Source of the DNA: a virus
Reading direction: 5' to 3' (one strand)
DNA length: 39,079 nt
IMG/VR virus record: IMGVR_UViG_3300045988_151092
Shown: positions 1-14,268 of the stretch, one piece after another
Layout: every line of letters starts with the position of its first letter
Position numbering within the stretch: position 1 is the first letter of the stretch
Notes under the pieces: generated by a model
What the model was told of the DNA's origin: nothing
Database searches by the model: none
Seen by the model: the letters and a program-made list of their open reading frames with translations, nothing else
Program-made: the position numbers and the translations under genes

Positions 1-55
1 AAAAGATAAGAAGCTTAAGACAAATGCTATGAGAATATTGGATTCTAAAAAGGTT
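1..55. repeat. Terminal direct repeat, copy 1 (identical to 39025-39079)
   Basis: Base-by-base comparison shows aaaagataagaagcttaagacaaatgctatgagaatattggattctaaaaaggtt at both window ends. Confidence 0.95.
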
Positions 56-481
56 CCTTATGAAATGTTAAGTTATGAAAGTGAAGATGGAAAGATAGAT
101 GGAATATCTGTAGCGCATAAAATTGGAGTAGATGAAAAGAATGTATTTAAAACATTAGTAGCTCAAGGGACAAGTAAAGAGTTATATGTTTTTGTTATAC
201 CAGTAGCAGAAGAATTAGATTTAAAGAATGCTGCTAAGATAGCTGAAGAAAAGAAGGTTGAAATGATAGCAGTTAAGGATATATTAAAATACACTGGCTA
301 CATTCGCGGTGGATGTTCCCCTATCGGTTTAAAACGTGATTACAGAACATTTATACATGAGAGTGCTAAAGGCTTAGATTTCATGATAGTAAGTGCAGGA
401 AAGATAGGACATCAAATAAAATTAAATCCCAATGACTTAGTAGAAGTAGTATCTGGTAAATTTGAAAATCTAATAAAATAG
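2..481 (+). CDS. ybaK: YbaK/EbsC-type Cys-tRNA(Pro) deacylase (trans-editing), 5' end cut by the window edge and continued from 39020
   Basis: By eye the protein aligns with E. coli YbaK (VFKTLV, ELDLKNAAK..KKVEM, TGYIRGGCSPIG). The frame stays open back to base 2 (KDKKLKTNA before the tracked Met at 29). Stop TAG is at 479-481. Confidence 0.8.
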   Translation, partial: KDKKLKTNAMRILDSKKVPYEMLSYESEDGKIDGISVAHKIGVDEKNVFKTLVAQGTSKELYVFVIPVAEELDLKNAAKIAEEKKVEMIAVKDILKYTGYIRGGCSPIGLKRDYRTFIHESAKGLDFMIVSAGKIGHQIKLNPNDLVEVVSGKFENLIK

Positions 482-533
482 TTTTGTCTAAATAAACATA
501 GGTGGATGTTCACCACAGTTTATTTAGACAAAA
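482..533. repeat. 52-bp dyad: perfect 16-bp arms (482-497 / 518-533) plus an inner GGTG/CACC pair. Candidate attP for the adjacent serine recombinase
   Basis: ttttgtctaaataaac ... gtttatttagacaaaa are exact reverse complements. The dyad fills almost the whole gap between the convergent ybaK and int genes. Confidence 0.4.
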
Positions 534-538
534 AGATG

Positions 539-2047
539 TCACATAAAGGTAACATCTAAATCATTTGTTTCAGGGTCATAAACAATCTTTTTAAATATAC
601 TCATAGTAATTTTTCTTTTGTCATCAACACTTAAATTATTATTAAAAGCTTTTATATTATTATATATAAGAGCTTTATCTGTTTTTATCTTTGAATTTAA
701 TTCTTGTAACTCTAATTCTACAATATTACTCTTGATAGATGACTTTTCTTTTATTAAATTTTCAATTTTATCTATAAATATTAATGAAGCATCATTACTT
801 AATAATGCTATTTTATCAGTAAGATTAGAAATTGTTTTATCAATTTCAATTACTTTTTTATTTAAGCTAGCTATTTTAAAAGAGTTATCAACTTTATTTA
901 TAGAGTATGATGAATTAAATATTTTTTCATCTTTTAAAGAATATATTAAAGCTGAAACTTTAGCTTCTAATACATCTTGTTTAACTCTTTTAGTATTAGT
1001 ACAAGTTTTTAGCTTACCACGAACAGCATCTCTACAAGAGTAATAACTATAGGTTGATACATATATTTTTTCTTCACCTTTTTTATTATAGTACTTAGTT
1101 TTAGTGGTTTTAGTTTGTCCGCAATATGTTTGTCCACAGCATTTACACCTAATAGTTTTAGTAAGCCAAAACTTCTCACTAAATCTATTACCTTCTCTTG
1201 AAATATTTTTATCCATATCTTTATTTACAGAAATCCAAATAGAAGGTTCTATTAATCCAACTATATTACTAACAATAGCATATTTAGTGTCCTTATCTGT
1301 ATAGGTTAAATATGAATGTATATTATCTTCAGTTCCTTGAACTATATATCCTTTAGACTTTAAATAAAGGGATACTGAAGAGGAGCTCTTAACATAAATA
1401 GGTTTTCTTAAAGTTGTTGCTAATGTACCTCCTAAAAATTTATGGTTATACTTGTGTTGTATAAACTGAATAAGGTCAGTATTTTTACTTTTTTCATATT
1501 TCATATTGAATACATCTAAAATCATATCTTTATTATCCCATTCAATACCACCATTTGGATTATTTTTAAATCCTGTAGGAGGAGAGCCACCTGTCCATTT
1601 ACCTTTTTTAGCTATAGATAGTAAATTATCTTTTACTCTTTGCTGAATATTACTTCTTTCCATTTCAGCAAAACTTGCTAGTAGTGTAAGCATTACTTTA
1701 CCCATTTGAGTATTGGGGTCAAAACCTTCTGTTATAGATATAAGCTCAACATTATTTTCTTTAAACATTTCTAGTATATTTAGAAAGTCTAGTGTATTTC
1801 TTGCTATTCTATCTATTTTATAGCAAACAACTATATCTATTTGTTTTAACTCAGCTAATCTAAGCAACTTTTGAAATGCAGGTCTATTAGTATTACCACC
1901 AGAAAAACCTTCATCTTCAAAAACTTCAAAAGTAGAGTTAGTAAATTTTTTTAATATATATTCTTTACACATGTTTATTTGAGTTTCTATTGAAACAGAA
2001 CCTTCTATATAAACAGATTTTCTACTGTAAATTGCTACTTTTTTCAT
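539..2047 (-). CDS. Large serine recombinase (phage integrase)
   Basis: Has an N-terminal resolvase-type catalytic domain (VAIYSRKSV...), a recombinase domain, a Cys-rich zinc ribbon (RCKCCG...C..C) and a C-terminal coiled coil. Length is 502 aa and it sits at the edge of the lysogeny module. Confidence 0.9.
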   Translation of the reverse strand: MKKVAIYSRKSVYIEGSVSIETQINMCKEYILKKFTNSTFEVFEDEGFSGGNTNRPAFQKLLRLAELKQIDIVVCYKIDRIARNTLDFLNILEMFKENNVELISITEGFDPNTQMGKVMLTLLASFAEMERSNIQQRVKDNLLSIAKKGKWTGGSPPTGFKNNPNGGIEWDNKDMILDVFNMKYEKSKNTDLIQFIQHKYNHKFLGGTLATTLRKPIYVKSSSSVSLYLKSKGYIVQGTEDNIHSYLTYTDKDTKYAIVSNIVGLIEPSIWISVNKDMDKNISREGNRFSEKFWLTKTIRCKCCGQTYCGQTKTTKTKYYNKKGEEKIYVSTYSYYSCRDAVRGKLKTCTNTKRVKQDVLEAKVSALIYSLKDEKIFNSSYSINKVDNSFKIASLNKKVIEIDKTISNLTDKIALLSNDASLIFIDKIENLIKEKSSIKSNIVELELQELNSKIKTDKALIYNNIKAFNNNLSVDDKRKITMSIFKKIVYDPETNDLDVTFM

Positions 2048-2104
2048 GTTAATCCCTCCTTATTAAAAAATCTCTTAGTCAAAATTGCCTAAGAGACTTT
2101 AATT

Positions 2105-2569
2105 TTAAAAGAACTTACCAATCATTAAGTTAGGAATAAATCTAACTTCATAATTATCTATTTTGCAAGAAACACCGTATTTACATCTATAATAATCTAT
2201 TGCATCTTCTAAATAACTTTCAGTAACCCCTAAAAAATCAGCAATTTCTTTAGAGGTTTTACATCCATTTTCAAATGATCTTATTAGACCAAGTATTCCA
2301 ACATTTTGATTATAACCCCATTTTCTTGCTAAAAGTTCTTGCTTAACGTTTCTAACATCTTGCAGATTTGTAATATTACCAACAGTTAATTTATAATGCC
2401 CCAGCTCTTCGGCTAACACACAGTATTTTTCTTTAGTGCTCACATTACCATTTATATATATTTTATTTCCATGGCATTTAGCACAGGGTAAATTGTTTCT
2501 AAAATCAACCTCGACTACAGAAACACCTTCTTTTTCAGCCTTAGTTAATAATTTTTCATAGTTGTTCAT
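2105..2569 (-). CDS. ImmA/IrrE-like (DUF955) protein with a degenerate metal motif
   Basis: The size and the position directly downstream of the XRE repressor fit ImmA. The motif region reads LAEELGHYKL, so EELGH stands where HEXXH is expected. Confidence 0.6.
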   Translation of the reverse strand: MNNYEKLLTKAEKEGVSVVEVDFRNNLPCAKCHGNKIYINGNVSTKEKYCVLAEELGHYKLTVGNITNLQDVRNVKQELLARKWGYNQNVGILGLIRSFENGCKTSKEIADFLGVTESYLEDAIDYYRCKYGVSCKIDNYEVRFIPNLMIGKFF

Positions 2570-2596
2570 TGTAAATGTTCCCCCATTTAGAAGCGT

Positions 2597-3109
2597 TTAC
2601 TTTTTATGCTTTTTCTCATACTCAGCAATAACTTCGTCCATGATATTTTTTTGTTCTTCTGTAAGACCATCATCATGACAAGCAATAGGCATAAGATATT
2701 CTTTACCTGGTTCTTCCCATATTTCTTTTTCTCTTTTAGGAAGTTGAGTTATTTTACTTTCATTTTGATACTTAGGCATTTCCATTAAATCTTTAGTATA
2801 AGTAATAACTTTATCTTTACCTTCAGTATTTAATTTTCTTAAATCTTCTATATGTTGTTGTTCTTCTTTAGAATAATTAGAAGTAACATCTGTTTTTTTT
2901 ACTTCATCAAAATCCCATCCCATTAATATAGCTGGAGATATATTAAGTGCTTTTGAGAGAGCAATTATATTATCTCTTCGCATATTTTCAATCATTCCAG
3001 TTTCCCATTTTCTTACGGTACTTTTTCCAACACCTACTAATTCACCTAACTGTTCATACGTTAGGCCTAATTCTTGTCTCTTTTCTCGAATTAAATCTTT
3101 TATCTCCAT
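2597..3109 (-). CDS. XRE-family HTH repressor (CI/ImmR-like)
   Basis: The N-terminal HTH reads LGLTYEQLGELVGVGKSTVRKWETG. The gene is divergent from the cro-like gene, and its C-terminal half shows no obvious S24 peptidase motif. Confidence 0.85.
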   Translation of the reverse strand: MEIKDLIREKRQELGLTYEQLGELVGVGKSTVRKWETGMIENMRRDNIIALSKALNISPAILMGWDFDEVKKTDVTSNYSKEEQQHIEDLRKLNTEGKDKVITYTKDLMEMPKYQNESKITQLPKREKEIWEEPGKEYLMPIACHDDGLTEEQKNIMDEVIAEYEKKHKK

Positions 3110-3147
3110 AATTTTCCCCTTTCTGTATTTGTTTCAATTATATTACT

Positions 3148-3252
3148 ATTGTGTCTTTTATGCAACTTTTTATTCTTTTTTTGAGAAAAAGTGTCTTAAA
3201 GTGTTGACAAGTTTTGAAAAAGAGATTAGACTAAAAGTGTCTTAAATGACAC
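3148..3252. promoter_or_regulatory. Divergent immunity promoter/operator region with three GTGTCTT operator half-site copies and a TTGACA(3204-3209)-17-TAGACT(3227-3232) promoter facing cro
   Basis: GTGTCTT begins at 3151, 3191 and 3237. The stretch 3237-3252 (gtgtcttaaatgacac) is a near-palindrome. Confidence 0.6.
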
Positions 3253-3274
3253 TAAGTGAAAAGGAGGTAATAAG

Positions 3275-3484
3275 ATGGGAAATATTTTAAAGTCATTAAT
3301 TGTTCTTAAAGGAAAAACTATTCCAGAGGTTGCCAAAGAAATGCATATTGGTAAATCAACTCTTTACAAGAAAATTTATGGAGAGTCAGAATTTACAAGA
3401 AAAGAAATTTCAGAATTAATGTCTATATTAGAAATAGAGCCATATAGAGCTATGGAAATTTTTTTTAATGTAAAAGTGTCTTAA
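3275..3484 (+). CDS. Cro-like small HTH regulator
   Basis: HTH reads IPEVAKEMHIGKSTLYKKIYG. RBS is AAGGAGG. It is the first gene of the rightward early operon. Confidence 0.8.
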   Translation: MGNILKSLIVLKGKTIPEVAKEMHIGKSTLYKKIYGESEFTRKEISELMSILEIEPYRAMEIFFNVKVS

Positions 3485-3491
3485 AAGACAC
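3476..3491. promoter_or_regulatory. Fourth operator copy, a perfect 16-bp palindrome gtgtcttaaaagacac overlapping the cro stop codon
   Basis: It is an exact palindrome and shares the AAAGTGTCTTAAA motif with the sites at 3187-3252. Confidence 0.55.
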
Positions 3492-3571
3492 GAAGGTTGA
3501 GTTTAGTTTTTTACGTTTTAAAACTTTAATTCGTATAGTTATTTAGATATTTAAAAAAGGAGATTTAAAAG

Positions 3572-4297
3572 ATGAATAATTTAATGATTTTTGAAAACAA
3601 AGAATTAGGAATGGATGTAAGAGCAATAAAAAATAAAGATGGAAGTATTTCTATTAACGCAGAAGATACAGCAAGAGGCTTTGGATTTACGCAGATTAAG
3701 AATAAAAAAGAATATGTAAGATGGGAAACTTTAAACACCTATTGTAAAGAATTTGGATTTTCCCAACAAGTTGGGAAAGATGATTTCATTCCTGAAAGCT
3801 TATTCTATTTGTTAGGAATGAAGGCAAATAATGATGTTGCCAGAAAGTTTCAAACTTGGTTAGCTATTGATGTTATTCCGGCTGTAAGAAAAACAGGACA
3901 ATACAAGACCCAGAATAAAGAATTGCTATCCAGTATTGATATGTTTGAACTACAAGTTAAAGCTTTAAGAGAAGTTGAAGAGAAAGTAAATGAAGTAGAT
4001 AAAAAATTTGATGATTTACCACTATTTGAAATTGACAGTAAGGATTTAAAAAAGAAAGTTAATAGAGTTGTAGTTTCATTACTAGGTGGTAAGAAGTCTA
4101 ATGCATATAAACCACTAAGTAAAAAAGTATTTTCAGATTTATATGGACAAATTCATAGGGAGTTTGGAGTTAATACTTGTGCAGCTATAAAAAGAAGGGA
4201 TTTAGATTTAGCTAAAGAGATAGTTGATAACTATACACTACCAAGAGCATTAAAAGAAGAAATAGAACTTGCTAATAGTCAATTAGCATTTGCTTGA
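3572..4297 (+). CDS. Antirepressor-like protein (Bro-N/ORF6N-type N-terminus)
   Basis: The N-terminus MIFENKELGMDVRAI..INAEDTARGFGF is typical of phage antirepressors. It sits just after cro. Confidence 0.65.
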   Translation: MNNLMIFENKELGMDVRAIKNKDGSISINAEDTARGFGFTQIKNKKEYVRWETLNTYCKEFGFSQQVGKDDFIPESLFYLLGMKANNDVARKFQTWLAIDVIPAVRKTGQYKTQNKELLSSIDMFELQVKALREVEEKVNEVDKKFDDLPLFEIDSKDLKKKVNRVVVSLLGGKKSNAYKPLSKKVFSDLYGQIHREFGVNTCAAIKRRDLDLAKEIVDNYTLPRALKEEIELANSQLAFA

Positions 4298-4424
4298 AAT
4301 AATTGTTTGCTAGACAAGCATTAATTAAACAGCATATCTCACTAATGCTAAGGGAATATATAGTACAAGCTTTAATTAGAAGCCAATTAAAGCTAAGGGG
4401 AAATAAAACAAGGAGGATATTAGG

Positions 4425-4658
4425 ATGGCTAAAAGAAAAAAAGAAAATCCAAATGATTGGGATGAAAGTTTATTCCCAAAGTTAATTATAAAGGATGGTA
4501 AACCATTTGTTACAGATGGTTATATAGGATCATCTAAAGTCACTATTGTAAGACAACCATCTATGGAAACAGTAGAAAGGTTTAATAAATTTCTAGCTAA
4601 AAAAGAAATTGAAGCTAGAACTGAATTACAGAAATTAAGGAGTGTAGAAGAATGTTAA
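4425..4658 (+). CDS. Hypothetical early protein
   Basis: AGGAGG RBS precedes the ATG. The ORF lies within the co-oriented early operon. Confidence 0.6.
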   Translation: MAKRKKENPNDWDESLFPKLIIKDGKPFVTDGYIGSSKVTIVRQPSMETVERFNKFLAKKEIEARTELQKLRSVEEC

Positions 4659-4831
4659 CTCCAAAAGGAAGAATCATCTTAGGAATAATATCAACAGTTA
4701 CAGCTTTATATCTAAGTGTACATTTTATGATTAAAAGCCTAGATGAAAAAGAGCCAAAGCAAAGTTTTAAATACTTAATACTAAGTGCATGCAATATGTT
4801 AGCTTTAATATTTTCAATAAATGTAATTTAA
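4652..4831 (+). CDS. Small membrane protein (59 aa, two hydrophobic segments), below the ORF-track cutoff
   Basis: Hand translation gives MLTPKGRIILGIISTVTALYLSVHFMIKSLDEKEPKQSFKYLILSACNMLALIFSINVI. AGGAG lies 10 nt upstream, and the ATG overlaps the preceding stop. Confidence 0.5.
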   Translation: MLTPKGRIILGIISTVTALYLSVHFMIKSLDEKEPKQSFKYLILSACNMLALIFSINVI

Positions 4832-4845
4832 GGAGGAATTTTATA

Positions 4846-5130
4846 ATGGAAAATAATAAATATGTATTCGTAAAGGATTTTGATACAGCTTTAGTTCAAT
4901 TAGGAGAGATTCTTGATAACTTTAACGATAATAGAAATTTTGAGGTTACAGATGATGATATAAGAGCTTTAGAATTAATTATTAAAGCACATAGGAACGG
5001 ATTAAGTACTAAAGATTTAGTTAGTCTATTATCACAAAGAGAAGGGGTAGAATTAATAAGTGTAGATCCACATACTGAAAAAAATATAACAATATGTGGA
5101 CCAGCAATAGTTTTAAATATAATTGATTAG
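4846..5130 (+). CDS. Hypothetical protein (start moved to the RBS-backed ATG)
   Basis: AGGAGG at 4831-4836 precedes the ATG at 4846 (MENNKYVF...). The tracked upstream start overlaps the previous gene. Confidence 0.6.
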   Translation: MENNKYVFVKDFDTALVQLGEILDNFNDNRNFEVTDDDIRALELIIKAHRNGLSTKDLVSLLSQREGVELISVDPHTEKNITICGPAIVLNIID

Positions 5131-5336
5131 CGAACCTTACTGTATCTATAAGAATTCTTTATAAAAGCATGATGATATTTGCCTTTAGATGAAGCGTTTA
5201 AAAGCCCTTCAAATATATTCTGTGGAACATTGTAGTAATCATAAACTCCAGAATGAAAGGCAATTCTTAAGGTAGCAGTACTTGAATCATAACCAACCGC
5301 AACTAAGTTGCTTGATGATACAGGTATCATATTCAT
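5127..5336 (-). CDS. KTSC-domain small protein, the only minus-strand gene inside the early operon
   Basis: SSNLVAVGYDSSTATLRIAFHSGVYDYYNVP..F..L matches the KTSC domain pattern. AGGAGG lies 8 nt upstream of the ATG at 5336. Confidence 0.6.
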   Translation of the reverse strand: MNMIPVSSSNLVAVGYDSSTATLRIAFHSGVYDYYNVPQNIFEGLLNASSKGKYHHAFIKNSYRYSKVR

Positions 5337-5428
5337 AAAAAACACCTCCTCTCAATATAAGTGTACAACCTTTAAATTAAAAAGTTTGTAGAAATGTGTT
5401 GAATGGAGAAGAGGAAAGGAGAAAAATA

Positions 5429-5593
5429 ATGAAACAATTAAAAAGATTAACTCAAAAACAAAAGAAATTATTTAAAGAATTATATGGAGTGAAGGAACCT
5501 TCCAAGAGATTTGGAGTTCATAGAGTTACTAAGGATGGCATTATATTTTGGGATAAGCTAGAAAATAAAGCTATGGATCCAATAAGAATTTAG
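5429..5593 (+). CDS. Hypothetical small basic protein
   Basis: RBS GGAAAGGAG precedes the ATG at 5429 (MKQLKRLTQKQKK...). Confidence 0.5.
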   Translation: MKQLKRLTQKQKKLFKELYGVKEPSKRFGVHRVTKDGIIFWDKLENKAMDPIRI

Positions 5594-5608
5594 TTAGGAG
5601 TAGTAGAA

Positions 5609-5719
5609 ATGAGAAAAGTTAATACAGGTTGCTTAGTAATTTTAATTGTACTAATTGTAATTTGGAGCATTATCTATTATGTAGTTTATAAAATATTAGG
5701 TTGGTTAGTTTTATGTTAG
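5609..5719 (+). CDS. 36-aa hydrophobic peptide (single TM)
   Basis: Hand translation gives MRKVNTGCLVILIVLIVIWSIIYYVVYKILGWLVLC. AGGAG lies 8 nt upstream. Confidence 0.4.
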   Translation: MRKVNTGCLVILIVLIVIWSIIYYVVYKILGWLVLC

Positions 5720-5956
5720 AACTAGCTAAGAAGATTACAAAAAATGTACAAGAAAGACTAAGCAAACTAACAATAGACGAAACTATAAATGTTTTAATAG
5801 AGGAAGAAATAAAAAAGAGAGTACCAAGGCACCGACCAAAGTAGCCAAGGCACTCAAGAAATAAATCTCAAGGATATATTACCACTAGGAATGGATTTAG
5901 ACAATGGTGAAATTTATGATATTGAAACTGGAGAAACAGTAAAGGAGCTGTAACTT

Positions 5957-6145
5957 ATGGGCAATTTACCAGATTGTTGTTATGAGTATAGATTCAATAG
6001 AGAAGAGCCAAGAGCTGTAGAAACTTGTACTGAATGTGGTTATAGCATATATGCAGGTGAAAGCTATTACTCTATTGGAGATAAGATAATATGCTGTGAA
6101 TGTATAGAGGATTTTAAGGAAGAAGCTAAAGATACTAAATTTTAA
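5957..6145 (+). CDS. Small Cys-rich zinc-ribbon protein
   Basis: Contains the CxxC pairs TCTECG ... CCECI. An RBS is present. Confidence 0.55.
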   Translation: MGNLPDCCYEYRFNREEPRAVETCTECGYSIYAGESYYSIGDKIICCECIEDFKEEAKDTKF

Positions 6146-6162
6146 AATAGGAGGAAAAAGTT

Positions 6163-6816
6163 ATGCCAGAAACAAAGAAGCTTAACATATATCAGAAAAT
6201 ACAAAAGGCTAGGGTAGATTTACAAAATAAAGATTTAAAGAAAACAGGATATAACAAGTATTCAAATTATAAATATTTTGAATTAGGAGATTTCTTACCA
6301 CATATCAATGATATTTGTAATGAGATTGGATTATATACAGAGTTTAGTTATGAAGAGAAGTTAGCAACTTTAACAATATATAATACAGAAAATTTAGAAG
6401 AAAAAAGAATATGGACAACACCAGTTGAGGTAGCCACATTAAAAGGATGCAGTACTATTCAAAATATAGGTGGTACTCAAAGTTTTGCAAGAAGATATTT
6501 ATATATGATGGCTTTTGAAATTGCTGAAACTGATGTAATAGATGGTGGAGCAGTTGATGAAGATGCGGAATTAGGAAAGCAGAAAATAGGACAGGCTCAT
6601 GTATTAACAATTAATAGTTTAATACAAGAAACTGAAACAGACAAAAAAGAGTTTTTAGCTTGGGCAGGAGTTAATAGAGTGGAAGATATAAAAAATGAAG
6701 CGGTAGGAACTTGTCTAACTATGCTTAATAAAAAGAAAATATTAAAAGAAAAAAGAGAGCAAGAGGAATTAAAGCAAATAGAAGCAGAGCAACAACAAAG
6801 AGATTTTGATTTTTAG
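6163..6816 (+). CDS. erf: Erf-family single-strand annealing recombinase
   Basis: By eye it aligns with P22 Erf (YNKYSNYKYFELGDFL ; GGTQSFARRYLYMMAFEI). Confidence 0.8.
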   Translation: MPETKKLNIYQKIQKARVDLQNKDLKKTGYNKYSNYKYFELGDFLPHINDICNEIGLYTEFSYEEKLATLTIYNTENLEEKRIWTTPVEVATLKGCSTIQNIGGTQSFARRYLYMMAFEIAETDVIDGGAVDEDAELGKQKIGQAHVLTINSLIQETETDKKEFLAWAGVNRVEDIKNEAVGTCLTMLNKKKILKEKREQEELKQIEAEQQQRDFDF

Positions 6817-6828
6817 GAGAGTTGAGAA

Positions 6829-7740
6829 ATGAAAGAGATACAAATAAATAAAGAATTACCAGTAATAAAAATGAACTTTGAAGAAGTTAAAGGATCACTA
6901 CAAGAAACTATGAAAAAGTTTGAGGGAATTATAGTTACAGAAGAAAGTTTAAAAGACTGTAAAGCAACTCAAAAAGATTTGGCAGGCCTTAGAAATAAGA
7001 TAGATACCTATAGAAAAGATGTTAAAAGAGAGATGTTAACTCCTATCGATATATTTGAATATCAATGTAAAGAGCTAATATACCTTATAGCGGATGTAGA
7101 AAAACCAATAAAAGAAGGAATAAAAGTATTTGATGATAAGCGCAGGGAAGAGAAAAGACAAAAAGCATTGGAGCTTATTAAAGAAAGTATAACTAAGCAT
7201 AATCTAAGCAAAGAATATGCTTCAAAGCTTACTGTAAAAAATGAATATTTAAACCTAAGTAAAAGCTTAAAAAGTGTTAGGGAAGATATAGAATCAAGAG
7301 CTTTATTATTAGAAAGAGAGCAGGAAGATGAAAAGCAAAGAAAAGAAATGCTTAGAGTTTCAATAGAAAATGCTATAAGTGTAGCTAATGAAGGTATTAA
7401 TACTAAGTTAAAATTTGAGAACTTTACTAAGTATATAGAATTTGGATGGTCTTTAGATAGAATTTTAAAAGAAATTAATGATAAGGCAACTATGATAAAG
7501 GAAGCTGAAAAACCAAAGGAGCAACCTAAAGTTGAAGTTAAAGAACCAGTTCAAACACCTTTAGATATCTCTAAACCACTTGAAAATGTTAAAAAAGAGG
7601 TCGAAGAAGAAATTAGGCAAGATAAATTCTTTGTGGATGTTTATGTAGAACATAATTTTGAAATGATCCAGGCTTTAAGTAAATTCTTAAAAGATAATGG
7701 ATATAACTATGAGGTTCATAAAAAAGGAAAAGTTAAATAG
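6829..7740 (+). CDS. DUF1351-like recombination/replication-associated protein
   Basis: The N-terminal pattern (LPVIKMNFEEVKGSL...TEESLKDCKATQKDLAGLRNKID) and the position after erf both fit. Confidence 0.55.
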   Translation: MKEIQINKELPVIKMNFEEVKGSLQETMKKFEGIIVTEESLKDCKATQKDLAGLRNKIDTYRKDVKREMLTPIDIFEYQCKELIYLIADVEKPIKEGIKVFDDKRREEKRQKALELIKESITKHNLSKEYASKLTVKNEYLNLSKSLKSVREDIESRALLLEREQEDEKQRKEMLRVSIENAISVANEGINTKLKFENFTKYIEFGWSLDRILKEINDKATMIKEAEKPKEQPKVEVKEPVQTPLDISKPLENVKKEVEEEIRQDKFFVDVYVEHNFEMIQALSKFLKDNGYNYEVHKKGKVK

Positions 7741-7753
7741 GAAAGCTTAGGAG

Positions 7754-7951
7754 GTGCTTAAGTTGGAAATAAAGTTAGAGGAAGTTAAGAAGTACGGAAA
7801 AGAGGAGAACTTCTTTATAGATATAAGAGATACTGAAAGGGTTGTATTAAGCATAAAGGATAGGGATGACATTATAGTACCAATGGATGAAGCTTCTTTT
7901 AATGAGCTAAGAGAAAAGATAAATGAAGCTTACGAGTTAAGACAGATGTAA
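7754..7951 (+). CDS. Hypothetical protein (the start may be TTG at 7763)
   Basis: The AGGAGG at 7749-7754 is better spaced for the TTG at 7763. Confidence 0.5.
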   Translation: MLKLEIKLEEVKKYGKEENFFIDIRDTERVVLSIKDRDDIIVPMDEASFNELREKINEAYELRQM

Positions 7952-7963
7952 GGAGTGTAAGGA

Positions 7964-8701
7964 TTGAAAAACTTAGTAGAAGGTTGGTTAAAACTTTATA
8001 GAAGTATTCAGAATCATTGGTTATGGGAAGATAAGCCATTTAGTAGAGGACAAGCCTTTGTAGACCTTCTACTAATGGCAAACCATAAAGACAATAAGAT
8101 ATTATTTAACGGTGAGTTGATAGAGGTGAAAAGAGGCTCAAGAATTACATCATTAAGGCAACTAAGTGAGGCATGGGGATGGAGCACTAAAAAGACCAAA
8201 AAGTTTTTAGAACTTCTTGAAAAAGATAACATGATAACTGTAAAAAGTGACAATAAGAAAACACTTGTAACCATTGAAAACTATGGGGTTTACCAAGAAG
8301 TAGGAAACACAGAAGAAACACAGGAGAAACACCAAGGAAACAGTGAGGAAACGCAGAGGAAAAACAAAAGAAATTCAAAAGAAATTCAAAAAAAAACAAA
8401 CAAGAATGATAAAGAAAGATATAAGAATGATAAAGAAAGATATAAGAATGATAAAGAAAGAAAAGAAGAGGAATCCCAACCAGCCTCTCCTCGATTCTAT
8501 CCTTCTCCTATTCATGAGTTATTAGCTAATTCAGATTCTTTATCACCAGTAAGTTACAAAACATTTTTTGAAAATGCTGATATTAGAGAAGAGGTTGGAG
8601 TTATACAAATTAAACCAGAGAATGAGTTTTATAAAGGAGCTATTAAAAAGTATATTCCAACATTAGAGATTGAAACTCATAAAAAAATAGAGGTGATTTA
8701 A
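7964..8701 (+). CDS. Replisome organizer / DnaD-like replication initiator with a low-complexity repeat linker
   Basis: N-terminal winged-helix pattern WLKLYRSI..HWLW..KPFSRGQAFVDLLLMAN. The KNDKERY x3 repeat is encoded by DNA iterons. Confidence 0.6.
   Translation: MKNLVEGWLKLYRSIQNHWLWEDKPFSRGQAFVDLLLMANHKDNKILFNGELIEVKRGSRITSLRQLSEAWGWSTKKTKKFLELLEKDNMITVKSDNKKTLVTIENYGVYQEVGNTEETQEKHQGNSEETQRKNKRNSKEIQKKTNKNDKERYKNDKERYKNDKERKEEESQPASPRFYPSPIHELLANSDSLSPVSYKTFFENADIREEVGVIQIKPENEFYKGAIKKYIPTLEIETHKKIEVI
8402..8461. repeat. About 2.9 tandem copies of the 21-bp unit aagaatgataaagaaagatat (candidate origin iterons), preceded by an 11-bp x2 repeat at 8368-8389
   Basis: Copies at 8402-8422 and 8423-8443 are identical. 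The third copy at 8444-8461 is truncated. Confidence 0.85.
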
Positions 8702-8875
8702 GTGAAAGTTAATTTACTAGAAGTTTATTCAGTACATGAACTAGCATTAAAGACTTATAGAGATTTAGCTAAAAGAAAAATAGAAAGAAATAGAGAAGTA
8801 GCTGCTTATTTAAAAATTAGAGAAATAAGTGGAAGAAAGAAATGGAATGTTAGATTTGGAGGATATAGGTGGTAG
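8702..8875 (+). CDS. Hypothetical 57-aa protein (GTG start)
   Basis: Translated by hand. AGAGGTG RBS lies upstream, and the ORF is translationally coupled between the rep and rusA genes. Confidence 0.35.
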   Translation: MKVNLLEVYSVHELALKTYRDLAKRKIERNREVAAYLKIREISGRKKWNVRFGGYRW

Positions 8876-9251
8876 TAGTTACAGGAAAAATAAGAGGAAA
8901 GGCTAGACCTAGGGTATGTAGGGGTCATGCCTTTACCCCTAAAGATACAGTTCAATATGAAAAGTTATTAAGAGATTGTTATAAGCAACAAGATGGGAGA
9001 TACCTAGAAGGCTCTATAAAAGCTTTAATAATTGCTTACTATAAAAAAATCGTAAGTCATATAGTAAAAAACGTGTACAAGCCATAAGGGATGGGTTAGA
9101 AAAGCCAACAAAGAAACCAGATTCGGATAACATAGGAAAGATTATATTAGATAGCTTAAATGGTGTTGATTATAAAGGTGATAGTCAGATTATAGAGTTT
9201 AGTTTTATTAAGAGATATACGGAAGAACTTGAAAGAGTTGAATTAAGGTAA
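8869..9251 (+). pseudogene. rusA: RusA-family Holliday junction resolvase split by a 1-nt frame change in an A7 run (9043-9049)
   Basis: Frame A carries GKIRGKARPR..TPKDT..YE and stops at 9085-9087. The -1 frame, open from 9045, carries KSYSKKKRVQAIRDGLEKPTKKPDSDNIGKIILDSLNG..GDSQI and stops at 9249-9251. Confidence 0.7.
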
Positions 9252-9371
9252 ATAGAAATTGTTCTTTTAAAATTTAATAATATGGTGTTTAAATAATATA
9301 AAAATTGTATTGAAGATATTTATTGGATATAATTATACAGTAATATTAGTTTTATGAATAGGAGGTTAATT

Positions 9372-10067
9372 ATGGAAATTAGAATTATATATAATTATGT
9401 AATACAATCTTGTAGTAAAGGATATCCAGTTATAACTGAAGATATAATAAAGATAAATAATGAAACCACATTAGAAGATATATTTAAATATTCAAATCAA
9501 GAAAATGCTGATGTCTCTAAATATTATAAGATAAGTGGTGGATATTATTTTAATAGAAAGATATTACCATATATAAAAAATAAAAATAATGAAGTTATAT
9601 GGGAACCAGAATATAAAAATATTAAAGTATTGGATTTTATTTTCACTCATGATATTCAAGATAATACAATATATGCTGATACAGAGATAACTCAAGCTGG
9701 AGGACCGGAATTAAATGATGTTTCACAGTTATGGAATCATTGTTATCCAATTATTGATCAAATTGTAACAGTAGTATGTTTTTATGAGTTAAGTATTAAA
9801 TTAAGTAATTTTATAAAAGGTTTATTCAAGGGAAAAAAGATTGAACAAGTACCACCAAATTCATTTATAGAATTTATTCTAAGTAAGGATAAATGGAATC
9901 ATTATGAATTAGCAGAATATATGGAAATAACTCCAGAAGAAAGTAAAAATCTTTTAAAAGGATTTGGTTATAAGTGGGATAATTCTAAAAAGATATATAT
10001 AAATAGAAATAATCTTAAAGAAATCTTAGAAAAATTTTCAAAAATATCAATTTATAAAAATTTATAA
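9372..10067 (+). CDS. Orphan moron protein A (about 231 aa), no recognisable domain
   Basis: Has its own TTGTAT(9305)-17-TATAAT(9328) promoter, a GGAGG RBS at 9361 and its own terminator. Confidence 0.7.
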   Translation: MEIRIIYNYVIQSCSKGYPVITEDIIKINNETTLEDIFKYSNQENADVSKYYKISGGYYFNRKILPYIKNKNNEVIWEPEYKNIKVLDFIFTHDIQDNTIYADTEITQAGGPELNDVSQLWNHCYPIIDQIVTVVCFYELSIKLSNFIKGLFKGKKIEQVPPNSFIEFILSKDKWNHYELAEYMEITPEESKNLLKGFGYKWDNSKKIYINRNNLKEILEKFSKISIYKNL

Positions 10068-10084
10068 GATTTTATAAAAAAATG

Positions 10085-10118
10085 CCGTATTATTCAAAAA
10101 GAATATACGGTATTTTTT
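10085..10118 (+). terminator. Intrinsic terminator of moron A
   Basis: The hairpin ccgtattattc-aaaaa-gaatatacgg is followed by tatttttt. Confidence 0.8.
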
Positions 10119-10495
10119 ATCTAATTTTATAGAACAAGAGAAGTGATATATATTATAAAGAATCAAATAAGTTTCTTTGATAAACCAAGAGTTATTTTAT
10201 TGGATGATTGGCGAGGCTCCATCCTCTATTAACTAAAAATAGAGTGTGGGAGGTTTGTTTAGATAAACAGGAATATTACATTAGATATTTATATGAAGTA
10301 TTTTATGGGATATATAAGTATAAGGCAGAAAAGATTAAATAGTTATATTCTGGCTAGGTAAGAACTTTAAATATGAAAGGATGTGATGTACCTATATCAC
10401 ACAATAGGGTTTAGCTAGTTTAAAATATTCTTTTAAAATTGAATAGAAATATTTTGCAATAAATTATATAATTTAGATATAACTTATTGTAAAGG

Positions 10496-11104
10496 ATGAT
10501 GAATTTTATGGATAATTTATTTACTATTTATAAGACGGATGATGATTTTGAAAAATCTATAAAGGAAGAATTAAACAATATAAAGTTGGAACTAAATTCA
10601 GATATAAAATTTAAATTAGAAAAAGACCATTGTCCAGCTGTATCTGGCGAACTTGCTGGACAAGTTATACACATATTAAATTCTGATCCTGTTGGAGCTT
10701 TTATTAATTTATGTGAATTGGGTGCAATAGCTTATAATGTTATTAAATTTTTAAAAAGTAAAAATAAAGAATATAGAATTAGTAAAAAGTTATGCAAAGC
10801 TCTAGCTTTATTTAAATTAAAGAATGAAAATAAAGAATCAACTGAAGGGTGTAATTTAGATAAAGCTATAGTATATGGTCCAATGAAAATAGATAATATT
10901 AATGGAATAATATCTATGGAAGATTTTGCTATAGTTAATGACGCAACAGGAGAAATAGGGTATTTGATAGCTTATGCTTTTCAAAAAGGAGAAAAAAGAA
11001 CAAGAACAATATGGAATTTAATTAATACAAAAGGAGAAATTATTGTTTCATGGACTACTCAAACTTTAACAGAAAATCTTCCAGAGTTTTTTAAAAATAA
11101 TTAA
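10496..11104 (+). CDS. Orphan moron protein B (202 aa), no recognisable domain
   Basis: AAAGGA RBS. The upstream motif and the terminator are both shared with moron A. Confidence 0.7.
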   Translation: MMNFMDNLFTIYKTDDDFEKSIKEELNNIKLELNSDIKFKLEKDHCPAVSGELAGQVIHILNSDPVGAFINLCELGAIAYNVIKFLKSKNKEYRISKKLCKALALFKLKNENKESTEGCNLDKAIVYGPMKIDNINGIISMEDFAIVNDATGEIGYLIAYAFQKGEKRTRTIWNLINTKGEIIVSWTTQTLTENLPEFFKNN

Positions 11105-11116
11105 TAAAATTAATTG

Positions 11117-11150
11117 CCGTATCATTCATATGAATATACGGTATTTTTTT
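11117..11150 (+). terminator. Intrinsic terminator of moron B, a near copy of the one at 10085-10118
   Basis: The hairpin ccgtatcattca-ta-tgaatatacgg is followed by tattttttt. Confidence 0.8.
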
Positions 11151-11185
11151 ATTCAAATTTACAAGTGAATATTAGAGGTGATTAG

Positions 11186-11662
11186 ATGATAGATAAAAAC
11201 ATATTTAGAGAAACAGAAGTATTACTTAAGAACTACAGTAAGTTAGAATCAGAGATAGAGTTAATAAAATTAGAGATTAAAGATATACAGGAATCTTATA
11301 CTGGATGTGGAGCAATAGTATATAGTGAGAAAAGTGGTCCGACAAATAAGTTTAGTAGCATGGTTGAAGATGAAGTAATAAGGAAAGAGAAAGATCTATT
11401 CTATCTTAAGAGAGATTTAGATTATAAGGTTAGATTAAAGAGAAGAATAGATTTAGCTATACAAACTCTTGGAACAAAAGAAGAGAGAGATTTAATTAGA
11501 TTAAGATATATAAATCAACCTAAAGTTAGTTGGGGAACAGTTGCTAGACATTTAAAATATAATAAAGATTATTGCAGGAAGGAATTAAGACCTAAGGTTA
11601 TAAAGCAAATTGCAGATTTTGTATTCTATAATCCAGGAGTTCAAGAAAGGTTTATTATATAA
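11186..11662 (+). CDS. ArpU/RinA-like late-gene transcriptional activator
   Basis: The size, the N-terminal pattern (TEVLLKNY..LE.EI) and the C-terminal EERDLIRLRYI...W..VA..L HTH-like segment fit this family. Classically this gene lies just before terS. Confidence 0.65.
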   Translation: MIDKNIFRETEVLLKNYSKLESEIELIKLEIKDIQESYTGCGAIVYSEKSGPTNKFSSMVEDEVIRKEKDLFYLKRDLDYKVRLKRRIDLAIQTLGTKEERDLIRLRYINQPKVSWGTVARHLKYNKDYCRKELRPKVIKQIADFVFYNPGVQERFII

Positions 11663-11663
11663 A

Positions 11664-11705
11664 TATACCCCCTATTTATACCCGTTTAATACCCCACGTA
11701 TACCC
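11664..11705 (+). repeat. Four phased direct repeats of (T/A)ATACCC
   Basis: Copies start at 11664, 11677, 11688 and 11699 (spacing 13, 11, 11), immediately after the late-activator stop codon. Confidence 0.85.
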
Positions 11706-11967: not shown

Positions 11968-12056
11968 GGAGATATATCTCAATAGGTAGAGTATCGCTTT
12001 AGTAATGTTATAGGTTACTAGGGCGAAGGTTAGAGGTTCAAATTCTTTTATCCCCA
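11968..12056 (+). tRNA. tRNA-like element 2 (89 nt) with a 13-bp anticodon-type arm. Possibly a pseudo or atypical tRNA; the loop centre is TAT
   Basis: Acceptor GGAGATA/TATCCCC has one A-C mismatch. The D-arm carries A14, G18, G19 and A21. The arm pairs 11994-12006 with 12014-12026 around the loop GTTATAG. The variable loop is AGGTT, the T-arm is AGAGG-TTCAAAT-TCTTT, and the discriminator is A. Confidence 0.4.
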
Positions 12057-12187
12057 ATATTAAAACTTAATAAAATATCTCTTTGGACTTTAGGGGTTAC
12101 AGAGAGAAAAAGAATCTAGTTCTAGGTACTGGATTATTTTGTATTTAATAGTTAAATAAATATAAATTTACTATACATAGATATATT

Positions 12188-12196
12188 TGTTATAAT
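12188..12196 (+). promoter_or_regulatory. Extended -10 promoter element (TGtTATAAT) for the NACHT gene
   Basis: tgttataat lies 29 nt upstream of the ATG, with an AAGGGGG RBS at 12211-12217. Confidence 0.5.
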
Positions 12197-12224
12197 ATGA
12201 ATATATATTTAAGGGGGAATAGAA

Positions 12225-14243
12225 ATGGAAGAACTATTGAATAAAGGAATAACTTTGATAGCGACTACTTGTGTAGGTGAAATTATAAAATCAACTGTAA
12301 AAGAGTATGTTTCTCCACGATTAAAAACATTAAGTGACAATTCACTTTTAGATAAAGATAGAGTAAAAGTAGAAGAGAATATTTTGGATTATTTAGAAAG
12401 ATCTTATAAAAATAATAAATATATAAATACTATAGTGTTTAAAAATCAACAAAAAAAATTAGAAGATTTATATATACCATTAAAGGTAGTTAAATATATA
12501 GGTAAAAATGAAAAAAATAATTTTGAACTTTGTATAGATAAATATGATGAAAAGTTCATTCCATTACATAATAAAGTTTTGTTAGTAGATAATGCAGGTA
12601 TGGGAAAATCAACTATAATGAAATTTTTATATTTAAGTACGATTAAAGAAAATAAAGGGATACCAATATTAATAGAATTAAGAAAGTTAGATAAAAATAC
12701 ATCAATATTAGATTTTATAGTTAAAGAAATTAATGGAATTGATACTGAGTGTAATAAAAAGGTTATAGCTGAATTAATAAGAGGAGGTGATTTTATATTT
12801 TTCTTTGATGGATATGATGAAATAACATTAGAAAATAAAGATATTATTACAAAAAATATTCAAGAATTCATAGATAAAGCTCATAATAATAAATTTATAA
12901 TTTCATCTAGAGATGAGGATGAACTTACATCTTTTGGGGATTTTCAAAGATTTTATATAAAAGCACTTGCTAAAGAAGAAGCATATCAATTAATTAGCAA
13001 ATATGACGAAAATGGAGATTTATCAAAAGAATTAATAGATAATCTTGAAAATGAAGAAAATCTAAAAATATTGAAAGAATTTTTAGAAAATCCGCTTATG
13101 GTTTCTCTTTTATATAAAGCATTTGAATATAATAAAAGTATACCATACAAAAAGCACATATTTTATAAACAAGTATACGATGCATTGTTTGAGCAACATG
13201 ATTTATCAAAAGGTGGTGCATATAAACATATAAAAAGAAGTGGATTGGATATAGATGATTTTCATAAAATATTACGATGCTTAGCTTTTACTACATTGTC
13301 AAAGGGAATAGAATATTCAAAAGAAGATTTAATCAAATATATAGATTTTGTAAAAGAAAAAAATTCAGAAATAGAATTTAAAACGAGCTTTTTTATTTGG
13401 GACATAGTTCATTCAATACCATTATTCATAAAGGATGGATTGGAATATAAGTGGATACACAAATCATTTCAGGAGTATTTTGCTGCAGCTTATATATGCA
13501 ATGATTCTAAAAAGCAATCGGATAAATTTCTAAAAAAAATATCAAGTGAAGTTAAAATAGATAAATATTATAATATATTAGACTTTTGTTATGATATGGA
13601 TTACAAGAGTTTTTCTAGAAGTATATTATATCCTGTTATTGAAGAATTTATAAAATATTATAATGCTAGCTACAATAATCAATATTATTCTAATATTGAT
13701 GAAAAACATATTAATATTAGAAAAAGTCTAGAATTTAGTTATGAAAAAATATTTATAAAAAGATTAAATGAAAACACTAGGCATTTACGAATTAAAAAAG
13801 ACGTTAATGATACATTTAGTTATACATTTAGTGATGTAAATTTTGATGGAGCAGTTAAGTTTATAATAACTAGCAAAGATTCGCTAGGTAATTTAAAGGA
13901 AGTTGCAGCAAATATAGGTAGTAAAAGAAAAACATCATTAATGAAGTTGTTATACAATAAAAGGAATAGTATTGTAAGTGAAATAGAAGAAGTTAAGAAT
14001 ATGAAAGGAGATATTACAGAAATAGTTCAAAATTATGAATGGAATTTACTAAATGATGATGTAGAAAATATATTTAATAGAAAAGATAAATTTCTTATCA
14101 TACATAATTGGTTTCAAAAATATGCTTCAAATGATCTTGATGAAATACCTGCAATAATTTTTAACTATAGTGAGTGCATTAAATTAAAAAATAATATAGA
14201 TAAAGAAATTATTGAAGAAGAAAGTGACTTAGACTTTTTGTAG
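12225..14243 (+). CDS. NACHT-family STAND P-loop NTPase (bacterial NLR-like, candidate anti-phage sensor)
   Basis: Motifs seen: Walker A VDNAGMGKST (aa 121-130), ILIELRKL, Walker B DFIFFFDGYDE (aa 189-199), FIISSRDE, ENPLMVSLLY and HKSFQEYFAAAY. The N-terminal region (about 110 aa) and C-terminal region (about 240 aa) show no recognisable domain or repeats. Confidence 0.8.
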   Translation: MEELLNKGITLIATTCVGEIIKSTVKEYVSPRLKTLSDNSLLDKDRVKVEENILDYLERSYKNNKYINTIVFKNQQKKLEDLYIPLKVVKYIGKNEKNNFELCIDKYDEKFIPLHNKVLLVDNAGMGKSTIMKFLYLSTIKENKGIPILIELRKLDKNTSILDFIVKEINGIDTECNKKVIAELIRGGDFIFFFDGYDEITLENKDIITKNIQEFIDKAHNNKFIISSRDEDELTSFGDFQRFYIKALAKEEAYQLISKYDENGDLSKELIDNLENEENLKILKEFLENPLMVSLLYKAFEYNKSIPYKKHIFYKQVYDALFEQHDLSKGGAYKHIKRSGLDIDDFHKILRCLAFTTLSKGIEYSKEDLIKYIDFVKEKNSEIEFKTSFFIWDIVHSIPLFIKDGLEYKWIHKSFQEYFAAAYICNDSKKQSDKFLKKISSEVKIDKYYNILDFCYDMDYKSFSRSILYPVIEEFIKYYNASYNNQYYSNIDEKHINIRKSLEFSYEKIFIKRLNENTRHLRIKKDVNDTFSYTFSDVNFDGAVKFIITSKDSLGNLKEVAANIGSKRKTSLMKLLYNKRNSIVSEIEEVKNMKGDITEIVQNYEWNLLNDDVENIFNRKDKFLIIHNWFQKYASNDLDEIPAIIFNYSECIKLKNNIDKEIIEEESDLDFL

Positions 14244-14268
14244 AACTCTCATTTGAGAGTTCTTTTTA
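14242..14268 (+). terminator. Intrinsic terminator after the NACHT gene
   Basis: The hairpin agaactctc-attt-gagagttct is followed by a T-run. Confidence 0.8.

Follow-up and report, generated by a model that had tools for sequence, protein, structure and literature searches.

The stretch of DNA analysed here (39,079 nt; IMG/VR record IMGVR_UViG_3300045988_151092; 'the window' throughout) belongs to a temperate Clostridium perfringens phage or prophage, and two of its open reading frames (ORFs), ORF-A and ORF-B, are best read as independent single-gene cassettes (morons) stacked in a variable slot between the early genes and the late activator. Each lies between a conserved 5' module and a conserved 3' hairpin, for which we coined the names E5 and HP in this analysis, and the same two ends enclose more than 100 unrelated genes; the duplicated cassette scaffold that a first-pass annotation of the window had suggested is thus right, and far more general than the pair for which it was proposed. 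We consider it fairly probable that these units are portable promoter/terminator cassettes, shuffled by recombination at their conserved ends, and an analogue of the promoter-early stem-loops (PeSLs) of T4-like myoviruses. The parts of the two cassettes are as follows.

9251-9299, plus strand: E5 (5' module) of cassette A, with the core GTTCTTTTAAAATTTAATAATATGGTGTT at 9261-9289, which includes a 13-mer shared with cassette B
9305-9333, plus strand: putative sigma-A promoter of ORF-A, TTGTAT, 17-nt spacer, TATAAT, read from the sequence
9372-10067, plus strand: ORF-A, 231 amino acids (aa), with AGGAGG at 9360-9365
10077-10129, plus strand: T1, the HP (3' module) of cassette A, with stem CCGTATTATTC/GAATATACGG, a bulged T and loop AAAAA
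10367-10495, plus strand: 5' region of cassette B, with the palindrome GTGAT-N8-ATCAC at 10384-10401
10427-10451, plus strand: degenerate E5 of cassette B, ATTCTTTTAAAATTGAATAGAAATA
10444-10472, plus strand: putative ORF-B promoter from the promoter scan, TAGAAA-17-TATAAT
10508-11104, plus strand: ORF-B, 198 aa (202 aa if the start is 10496), with the Shine-Dalgarno sequence AAAGGA at 10491-10496
11108-11161, plus strand: T2, the HP (3' module) of cassette B, with stem CCGTATCATTC/GAATATACGG, a bulged C and loop ATAT

The limits of both units are drawn by homology. The ORF-A unit, 9251-10129, starts and ends where similarity to the copy in Clostridium baratii does, and the ORF-B unit, 10367-11161, is delimited in the same way by L012, an unrelated phage (L numbers are our handles for individual loci). 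Where phages have a different gene in this slot, similarity to them continues through E5, ends at about 9299 and picks up again at the hairpin at about 10041-10081; for phiCp-A, the nearest deposited relative (89% identity across window 10081-11694), it resumes at 10081, within T1. Both units lie, as the first-pass annotation had placed them, between the replication module, represented by a DnaD-like gene and RusA, and a late activator of the RinA/DUF722 type. That they are insertions is borne out by their base composition, 21-25% G+C at 9100-11100 vs 30-33% in the backbone on both sides, and by their absence from related phages, many of which have no cassette, with RusA running straight into the next gene.

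In silico, each insertion also looks independently transcribed, going by a sigma-A-like promoter site, the Shine-Dalgarno sequence of its gene and a strong hairpin of the intrinsic-terminator type. The promoter-like site of ORF-A is conserved in L008 and appears as TTGATT-16-TATAAT in L003. In cassette B the 3' half of the degenerate E5 supplies the TAGAAA of the putative promoter; TAGAAA-17-TATAAT is kept in L012 and TTGCAA is not. The T-run of T1 (10113-10118) is followed by a conserved tail, ATCTAATTTTA, and its RNA fold reaches -17.6 kcal/mol (z = -8.9 vs shuffles), while T2, with a T-run at 11144-11150 and the tail ATTCAAATTTA, folds at -11.9 kcal/mol (z = -4.0 vs shuffles). The 13-mer motif itself is prone to slippage: in L008-L011 the copy 5' of ORF-B is precisely deleted between two TTAAAAT repeats, and the motif 5' of ORF-A is tandemly duplicated (GATTAAAAATATTCTTTTAAAA, then GATTAAAAATGTTCTTTTAAAAC).

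The similarity between the two cassettes might have arisen by chance in AT-rich sequence, or through a local duplication in the recent past of this phage, and the genome is indeed AT-rich, but we give these explanations almost no credence. The 13-mer TTCTTTTAAAATT lies at 9262-9274 and 10428-10440, exactly where it had been reported, and occurs four times in the window against 0.05 expected, a count that none of 100 shuffles reached; the near-copy terminator hairpins, likewise placed correctly at 10084-10118 and 11116-11149/50, follow a pattern found twice in the window vs 0.00 expected in the same kind of test. Hundreds of copies in other genomes, together with the shuffle tests, refute both chance and local duplication. 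ORF-A and ORF-B cassettes moreover occur separately, ORF-A without ORF-B in L003-L007, L014 and L015 and ORF-B without ORF-A in L012 and L013, so that the description of the pair as twins born of a local duplication has to be given up. The one non-specific element is the 9-mer AATAGAAAT, present 10 times in the window against 4.0 expected, including at 10002 inside ORF-A and at 12218 at the start of the next cargo gene. Its copies at 9251-9259 and 10442-10450 had been located correctly and read as the same neighbour of the 13-mer in swapped order; alignment with relatives shows the first to be spacer 5' of the motif and the second a degenerate GAATAGTACGG, and as the copies are not homologous the swapped order carries no meaning.

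The 13-mer has two more exact matches in the window, at 2101-2113 and 7461-7473, both on the minus strand. The first, within 2096-2114 (GTTCTTTTAAAATTAAAG), begins in the stop codon of an ORF at 2105-2569 (minus strand) and is followed by a different hairpin (CTCTTAG..CTAAGAG plus a T-run), 5' of a 502-aa ORF at 539-2047 (minus strand); the second is antisense within the ORF at 6829-7740.

Both modules recur across the genus Clostridium with strict polarity. The loci analysed come mostly from searches in which E5 or HP itself served as query, and the genome scan took one genome per species. The exact HP pattern was found in 15 viral loci and the E5 pattern in at least 80; across 108 sources, 111 E5 and 80 HP copies lie on one strand, always E5 and then HP, and make up 64 cassettes with interiors of 309-3931 nt. 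The genome scan gave at least 120 stretches from well over 30 Clostridium species plus isolates or metagenome-assembled genomes, among them C. perfringens, C. botulinum, C. paraputrificum, C. tertium, C. disporicum, C. sardiniense, C. gasigenes and C. cavendishii. The genome matches listed (120 stretches) hold 163 HP and 140 E5, with E5 upstream of 94 of the HP, and only one locus among them has E5 and HP on opposite strands. Taken over about 230 loci, the order is E5, gene, HP on the same strand in all but one. Arrays are co-oriented, the largest among the matches listed comprising six cassettes (L249), and 24 Clostridium plasmids likewise have the junction between one unit's HP and the next unit's E5, in every case within intergenic DNA that has no annotation.

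Overall we count at least 137 distinct cassettes with a median interior of 692 nt, 103 of which contain exactly one ORF of at least 50 aa. Their 167 cargo proteins (among the matches listed) fall into 141 families. Solitary E5-gene-HP units outnumber HP-E5 junctions by 158 to 60 among the matches listed, and no unit without cargo was found there, the shortest interiors (189-300 nt) encoding mini-proteins. A reading in which the HP-to-E5 junction is itself the mobile unit, as a miniature inverted-repeat transposable element (MITE), is unlikely because the solitary units are the more numerous. At several prophage-edge loci of C. perfringens (L022-L024, L029 and L031) HP ends the gene of a 397-aa protein, by eye an M20-type amidohydrolase, with E5 some 3-4 kb upstream, so HP also serves apparent host DNA or multi-gene units.

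E5 has the short form ..TGTTCTTTGAAAATTGAATARTACGGTATT.. and the consensus ..AAAATG(T/A)TCTTTGAAAAYTGAATA(A/G)TACGGTATT.., lies at or 5' of the -35 position, and shows no RNA structure when its fold is compared with those of shuffled sequences. An extended -10 box, TRTGnTAYAAT, follows in 78 of 220 copies, at an offset of 9-10 nt in 71 of the 78, and TATAAT lies within 40 nt of E5 in 114 of the 220. HP, in short ATACCGTATTATTC-loop-GAATATRCGGTATTTTTT, has the consensus AATACCGTATTATTC, an A-rich loop of 3-9 nt, GAATAT(A/G)CGGTATTTTTT, and the tail TATTnAAATTTA. An alignment of 28 HP variants contains 13 conserved pairs, U.G wobbles and compensatory changes at a few of the pairs; pair 8-29 is U.G in 11 of the 28 sequences, where the opposite strand would have a C.A mismatch. 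The hairpin is thus conserved at the RNA level, on the coding strand, and with its U-tract it is predicted to be a classical intrinsic terminator.

Within arrays, HP is separated from the next E5 by 50-70 nt, and 35 aligned examples define a conserved junction of about 130 nt in the order HP, a second palindrome (TTCGCAATTCAAA..TTTGAAnTTATTGCGAACTAA), E5 and TRTGnTATAAT. The two ends are also related to each other: the reverse complement of TTGAATAATACGGTAT, a part of E5, matches the HP 5' arm exactly, down to the base that bulges in the hairpin, and the variants GAATAGTACGG and CCGTACTATTC are both present on both sides. E5 therefore resembles HP in inverted form, with the outer part of one arm missing. 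This inner inverted repeat of 14-16 nt is general across the family. Outer inverted 8-mers, TTGCGAAC/GTTCGCAA, are present at the left end in 54 of 228 cases and at the right end in 55 of 216 (inverse controls, 12 and 6).

Comparison among relatives places the breakpoints of insertion, deletion and replacement in the E5 and HP motifs. ORF-A stands alone after RusA in L003-L007, after DnaB in a C. baratii prophage (L014), and, in a phage contig with terminase and portal genes (L015), at some 2 kb 5' of KwaB and KwaA, the genes of Kiwa; it is joined by ORF-B in L008-L011, and an unrelated phage (L012, L013) has ORF-B by itself, placed between its SSB and RusA genes. With identical flanks, the same RusA gene on one side and the same small gene on the other, the slot holds four different cargos, namely ORF-A in the window, a 291-aa protein in phiCp-A, a 178-aa protein in L020/L123 and a 215-aa protein in L111. 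One site has three alternative alleles, and the right ends of units are sharply defined regardless of what follows. The exact difference between L083 and L098 is a single E5-cargo-HP unit set between two E5 copies, as would be expected had the repeats recombined. Because the ends are nearly identical in hundreds of copies, short homology for such recombination is available. Related phages encode annealing proteins of the ERF family, a type that recombines short, diverged sequences (PMC8093625).

The cargo is a mix of defence-like and metabolic or resistance-type accessory genes. Among 38 phage-borne cargo families scanned, Pfam identified GNAT (three families), NUDIX (two), CAT, Abi_alpha, GmrSD_N, RES, Barstar, PadR, AraC/GyrI/Cass2, 2'-5' RNA ligase and DUF1697, and PADLOC matches included PDC-S47, PDC-S07 and NsnA, with others. 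Many small cargos are hydrophobic mini-proteins. Short cassettes in L196, L218 and L305 encode recurrent peptides of 35-50 aa that are Gly/Phe-rich and then Cys/Arg-rich (e.g. MCFGFDVFNFGCNRCCRRCRCCRRCRRCRRCRRFIF). With cargo so mixed, membership of the scaffold does not reveal the role of ORF-A or ORF-B.

The arrangement of the ends, the arrays and the cargo could also be described as a family of mobile elements, a Clostridium counterpart of integron cassettes or of cargo-carrying MITE-like elements, whose E5/HP ends are recognised in trans by a transposase, an HUH enzyme or a tyrosine recombinase; we think this unlikely, and a little less likely still its more specific form, a dedicated and undescribed Clostridium gene-cassette system in which a trans-acting enzyme recognises the inverted-repeat ends of E5-gene-HP units, outer repeats included. 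Several observations speak for mobility of this kind. The ends are long imperfect inverted repeats (TTGAATAATACGGTAT vs the HP 5' arm), the outer repeats are far above their inverse controls, the right ends are sharp whatever sequence comes next, the arrays are co-oriented with one gene per unit (six in L249), the cargo is integron-like (GNAT, NUDIX, CAT, Cass2), and the sequence is conserved in replicons of several types and in many species. No recombinase or transposase family, however, recurs in the 8-kb neighbourhoods of the 120 genome loci listed, as judged by clustering all their ORFs of at least 90 aa; the only integrase-like family there occurs at seven loci. The one clean event of gain or loss that was found lies between two direct E5 copies, as homologous recombination predicts, and no target-site duplication is recognisable in the few comparisons of filled and empty sites.

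The likeness to integrons has several parts: units that mostly hold one gene stand in arrays with a common orientation, about 60-130 nt of conserved imperfect palindrome separates one unit from the next, and the cargo is hyper-diverse, for the most part without an assigned function, and includes GNAT, NUDIX, CAT and Cass2-type proteins. Nevertheless, the R''-L''/L'-R' boxes (RYYYAAC / GTTRRRY) of attC-type core sites are missing; E5 begins GTTCTTT (GTTYYYY), and the inverse core site is absent. No integron integrase (intI) lies near the arrays in the 120 genome loci listed, and the U-tract and G.U pairs of HP typify an RNA terminator rather than a recombination site of folded single-strand DNA. 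Integron cassettes are promoterless and expressed from Pc, whereas the cassettes described here bring their own predicted promoters, a further point against the mobile-element reading. To our knowledge, classical integrons have not been reported in the phylum of these bacteria. Were a dedicated system to exist, such cassettes would travel between phages, plasmids and chromosomes, each with its own promoter and terminator.

Since E5 is strongly conserved and asymmetric, lies at or upstream of the -35 position, and keeps a fixed offset to an extended -10 box in about a third of copies, it could instead be an operator bound by one shared regulator, whether a DNA-binding protein of phage or host origin or an alternative sigma factor. 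All cassettes would in that case belong to a single regulon, with protein binding as the reason for the conservation, and ORF-A would be under the same control as ORF-B, which the first-pass annotation had suggested from the shared signals. A second palindrome (TTCGCAAT..ATTGCGAA) adjoining E5 in arrays would suit this reading, which we hold to be quite improbable as the main explanation and which is compatible with recombining cassettes. The spacing between E5 and promoter varies (cassette A has about 40 nt); cassette B has only a degenerate half-site, and L008-L011 keep ORF-B although the 13-mer is deleted there. A regulator would also leave the equally conserved terminator and the inverted relation of E5 to HP unexplained, and no candidate regulator co-occurs in the 120 genome loci listed. 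As for co-regulation of the pair, it does not follow from a motif that also stands 5' of more than 100 unrelated genes and that is lost at ORF-B in four relatives. Readings of E5 as a CodY box, an alternative-sigma site or an attC site appear not to fit.

The complementarity of the two ends offers a further explanation, that E5 acts as a long-range anti-terminator: E5 in transcripts that come in from the upstream phage operon would pair with the HP 5' arm and allow read-through, transcripts from the cassette's own promoter, which lies 3' of E5, would lack it and terminate, and insertion would so be non-polar in lytic growth and insulated in the lysogen. E5 lies upstream of the -10 box, and the phage needs to read through T1 and T2 to reach its late activator. 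E5 and the HP 5' arm are complementary over 14-16 nt, with a mean duplex energy of -17.1 vs about -12 kcal/mol for the hairpin, cognate pairs outscore permuted ones in 1000 of 1000 permutations, and only two A.C mismatches occur at the variable position where about 10 are expected (Fisher p = 4e-5). In 21 triplets of HP(n-1), E5(n) and HP(n), however, E5 matched its own hairpin better in eight cases and that of its upstream neighbour in six (p = 0.76). Because the neighbouring hairpin is matched equally well, local homogenisation explains the cognate-pair signal. Pairing is moreover disfavoured kinetically, as 200-2300 nt and a translated ORF separate the partners, and the E5 of cassette B cannot pair with T2. 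We regard anti-termination by E5 as very unlikely.

Portable cassettes recombining at their ends remain the reading we prefer, and a mechanism can be outlined for it. E5 would lie just upstream of, or overlap, the -35 side of a sigma-A-type promoter, and HP would act as an intrinsic terminator through its bulged RNA hairpin and U-tract, so that the scaffold would make any cargo gene an insulated, self-contained transcription unit inside the phage operon. The ends would also supply the short homology by which cassettes could be swapped, lost, gained and stacked, via host RecA or phage annealing proteins of the ERF type.

Several points weigh against this account. Promoter and terminator activity are predictions from sequence, and homologous recombination alone, which we infer to be how the cassettes move, leaves unexplained why a 28-nt E5 and a 35-nt HP are nearly identical across species. 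The exact inverted copy of the HP 5' arm in E5, and the outer repeats in roughly a quarter of cassettes, look like transposon ends. The distance from E5 to the promoter is not fixed in cassette A, and E5 is degenerate in cassette B and deleted in L008-L011; this deletion implies that E5 is not essential for ORF-B expression. T1 and T2 both precede the essential late activator and no promoter follows T2, so read-through or antitermination is needed, a matter on which the model is silent. Finally, as the loci were mostly found by an E5 or HP query, their absolute frequencies are biased; polarity and cargo diversity are unaffected by this.

The closest known parallel is the PeSL (Arbiol et al., 2010, PMC2839356; Comeau et al., 2014, PMC4122927), a composite promoter/stem-loop motif that flanks ORFans in T4-like myoviruses, mediates modular shuffling and forms mini-circles. 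Both systems consist of small conserved terminator/promoter motifs around single non-essential ORFans in variable regions, and in both the breakpoints of insertion, deletion and replacement lie in the motifs, the cassettes appear insulated, and homologous recombination has been proposed. There is no sequence relation, the stems of PeSLs being GGGG..CCCC beside T4 early promoters. The scaffold described here is found in temperate siphoviruses of Gram-positive hosts, and genus-wide on plasmids and chromosomes as well; its 5' module includes one arm of the terminator in inverted copy, and some members of the family bear outer inverted repeats. We therefore treat the E5/HP scaffold as an analogue of PeSLs, neither a homologue nor a member.

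Morons, known from lambdoid and HK97-type phages (reviewed in PMC3594210), resemble the cassettes in having their own promoter and terminator (predicted here), in being inserted between genes that are adjacent in relatives, in their deviating base composition and in their presumed expression from the prophage. Classical morons, however, each have an unrelated promoter and terminator of their own, whereas here hundreds share one standard pair of ends. Intergenic repeats that carry promoters or terminators, such as Correia/NEMIS, ERIC and REP/BIME, are likewise short, abundant and lineage-wide, with hairpins co-transcribed with their neighbours, and 'putative mobile promoters' (PMC3575422) re-use one promoter sequence before unrelated genes. 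Such repeats insert between resident genes, while here the moving unit appears to be the gene with both its ends, as the excess of solitary units over junctions indicates. Rfam, applied to the window at both thresholds and to one array locus, contains no family that covers E5, HP or the junction. The motif strings occur in none of the searchable papers, and keyword searches gave no description of these Clostridium repeats. A genus-wide scaffold with inverted-repeat ends thus appears to be new, the concept being already known from morons and PeSLs.

Neither of the two proteins matches Pfam, PHROG, NCBIfam, PADLOC or PDB entries, in keeping with the earlier remark that no motif could be recognised, and kinship between them, which that annotation had also doubted, is ruled out by an hhalign probability of 0.6%. 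Both gave zero matches in PADLOC-DB 2.0 at E values up to 1, and PDB profile searches with both family alignments returned nothing. The extent given for ORF-A (9372-10067, 231 aa) is correct. For ORF-B, the 202-aa reading from 10496 gives way to the 198 aa from 10508 called in databases, which is most likely the true start. The term 'orphan' suits ORF-A, with its 11 homologues, all from Clostridium (C. perfringens, C. baratii) or metagenome contigs; it does not suit ORF-B, which has four close homologues and belongs to an unannotated family of proteins of about 200 aa comprising at least 47 clusters at 50% identity, with the motifs PAVxGELAG, VWGPM and SWxTQTL conserved in its alignment.

The AlphaFold2 model of ORF-A, of moderate confidence (predicted local distance difference test, pLDDT, 72), comprises an alpha/beta domain at the N-terminus, a long hydrophobic helix in the middle (117-152) and, at the C-terminus, a small helical/hairpin domain resembling a winged helix. 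Foldseek searches of PDB and BFVD found no match below E = 0.03; the best, at E values of 0.03-0.05, are not significant and, domain by domain, are ubiquitin-like for the N-terminus and winged-helix/helix-turn-helix for the C-terminus. The model of ORF-B, built from only four sequences, is unusable (pLDDT 42). Searches of Pfam and PADLOC with 37 ORF-B relatives gave nothing useful, a single relative matching AbiTi weakly (E = 8.6e-4), and distant relatives adjoin genes for DUF3800, DUF2726 and Mrr_cat, which lends their neighbourhood a faint flavour of defence islands and no more. A defence or exclusion role for ORF-A and ORF-B, as first proposed from their position, is therefore only weakly suggested.

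The cassettes are set among the following backbone genes.

7964-8701: DnaD-like loader, on the replication side, 5' of RusA
8869-9250, plus strand: RusA resolvase gene (Pfam RusA, phrog_140), the final backbone gene ahead of cassette A
10144-10342, plus strand: what is left of a small backbone gene in decay (61 aa in phiCp-B), its ATG lost and with a 1-base deletion
11186-11662, plus strand: late activator, RinA/DUF722-like (phrog_36 at 1.4e-24; weak matches to TIGR01636 and DUF722)

Alignment with the RusA of L008 shows the gene in the window to be interrupted by a +2 frameshift in the A-run near 9046-9052, with its C-terminal half in frame 3 to 9250; at 9040-9060 the window reads TATAAAAAAATCG and L008 TATAAAATACC, a difference of two extra bases. 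The split could be a pseudogene, a homopolymer sequencing error or a programmed frameshift. The small gene 3' of the hairpin keeps its ATG in L003 and phiCp-A, and its decay here, with the RusA frameshift, hints at decay of this part of the prophage. The late activator, annotated as 'sigma factor' in phiCp-A, has its start codon 36 nt beyond the end of T2, with no promoter in that gap. Near the late-regulator region a tyrosine-recombinase-like gene of about 180-280 aa is found in L014 (8667-9215), in phiCp-B (L002; 7236-7784) and at seven genome loci.

The DnaD-like protein contains a threefold tandem repeat of NDKERYK, encoded by a direct DNA repeat at window 8340-8440 that could be iteron-like origin DNA within the replication-initiator gene. 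Between the late activator and the terminase genes lies a third low-G+C cargo gene (12225-14243), whose 672-aa product is a NACHT/NB-ARC ATPase ending in an SNaCT5 domain (Pfam 1.2e-25; phrog_18297). The protein probably acts against phages in the manner of NLRs, and PADLOC 2.0 gave zero matches for it. As the gene has a promoter-like site of its own (12167-12196) and a different terminator (14242-14263), it stands outside the E5/HP scaffold. Rfam calls a tRNA at 11968-12056 (44.6 bits), where phiCp-A has tRNA-Ser annotated at the equivalent place; ARAGORN found no tRNA in the whole window.

If the cassettes are what we take them to be, E5 and HP would serve as tags of horizontally exchanged accessory genes in the phages, plasmids and chromosomes of Clostridium, including C. 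perfringens and C. botulinum, and so as a handle with which to harvest hundreds of candidate genes for lysogenic conversion, defence and resistance, with CAT, Abi_alpha, GmrSD and RES already seen among the cargo. The scaffold would also be a natural promoter/terminator pair, a usable part for Clostridium genetics. It would further provide a testable model for how temperate phages of Gram-positive hosts gain and shuffle cargo without disturbing their own operons.

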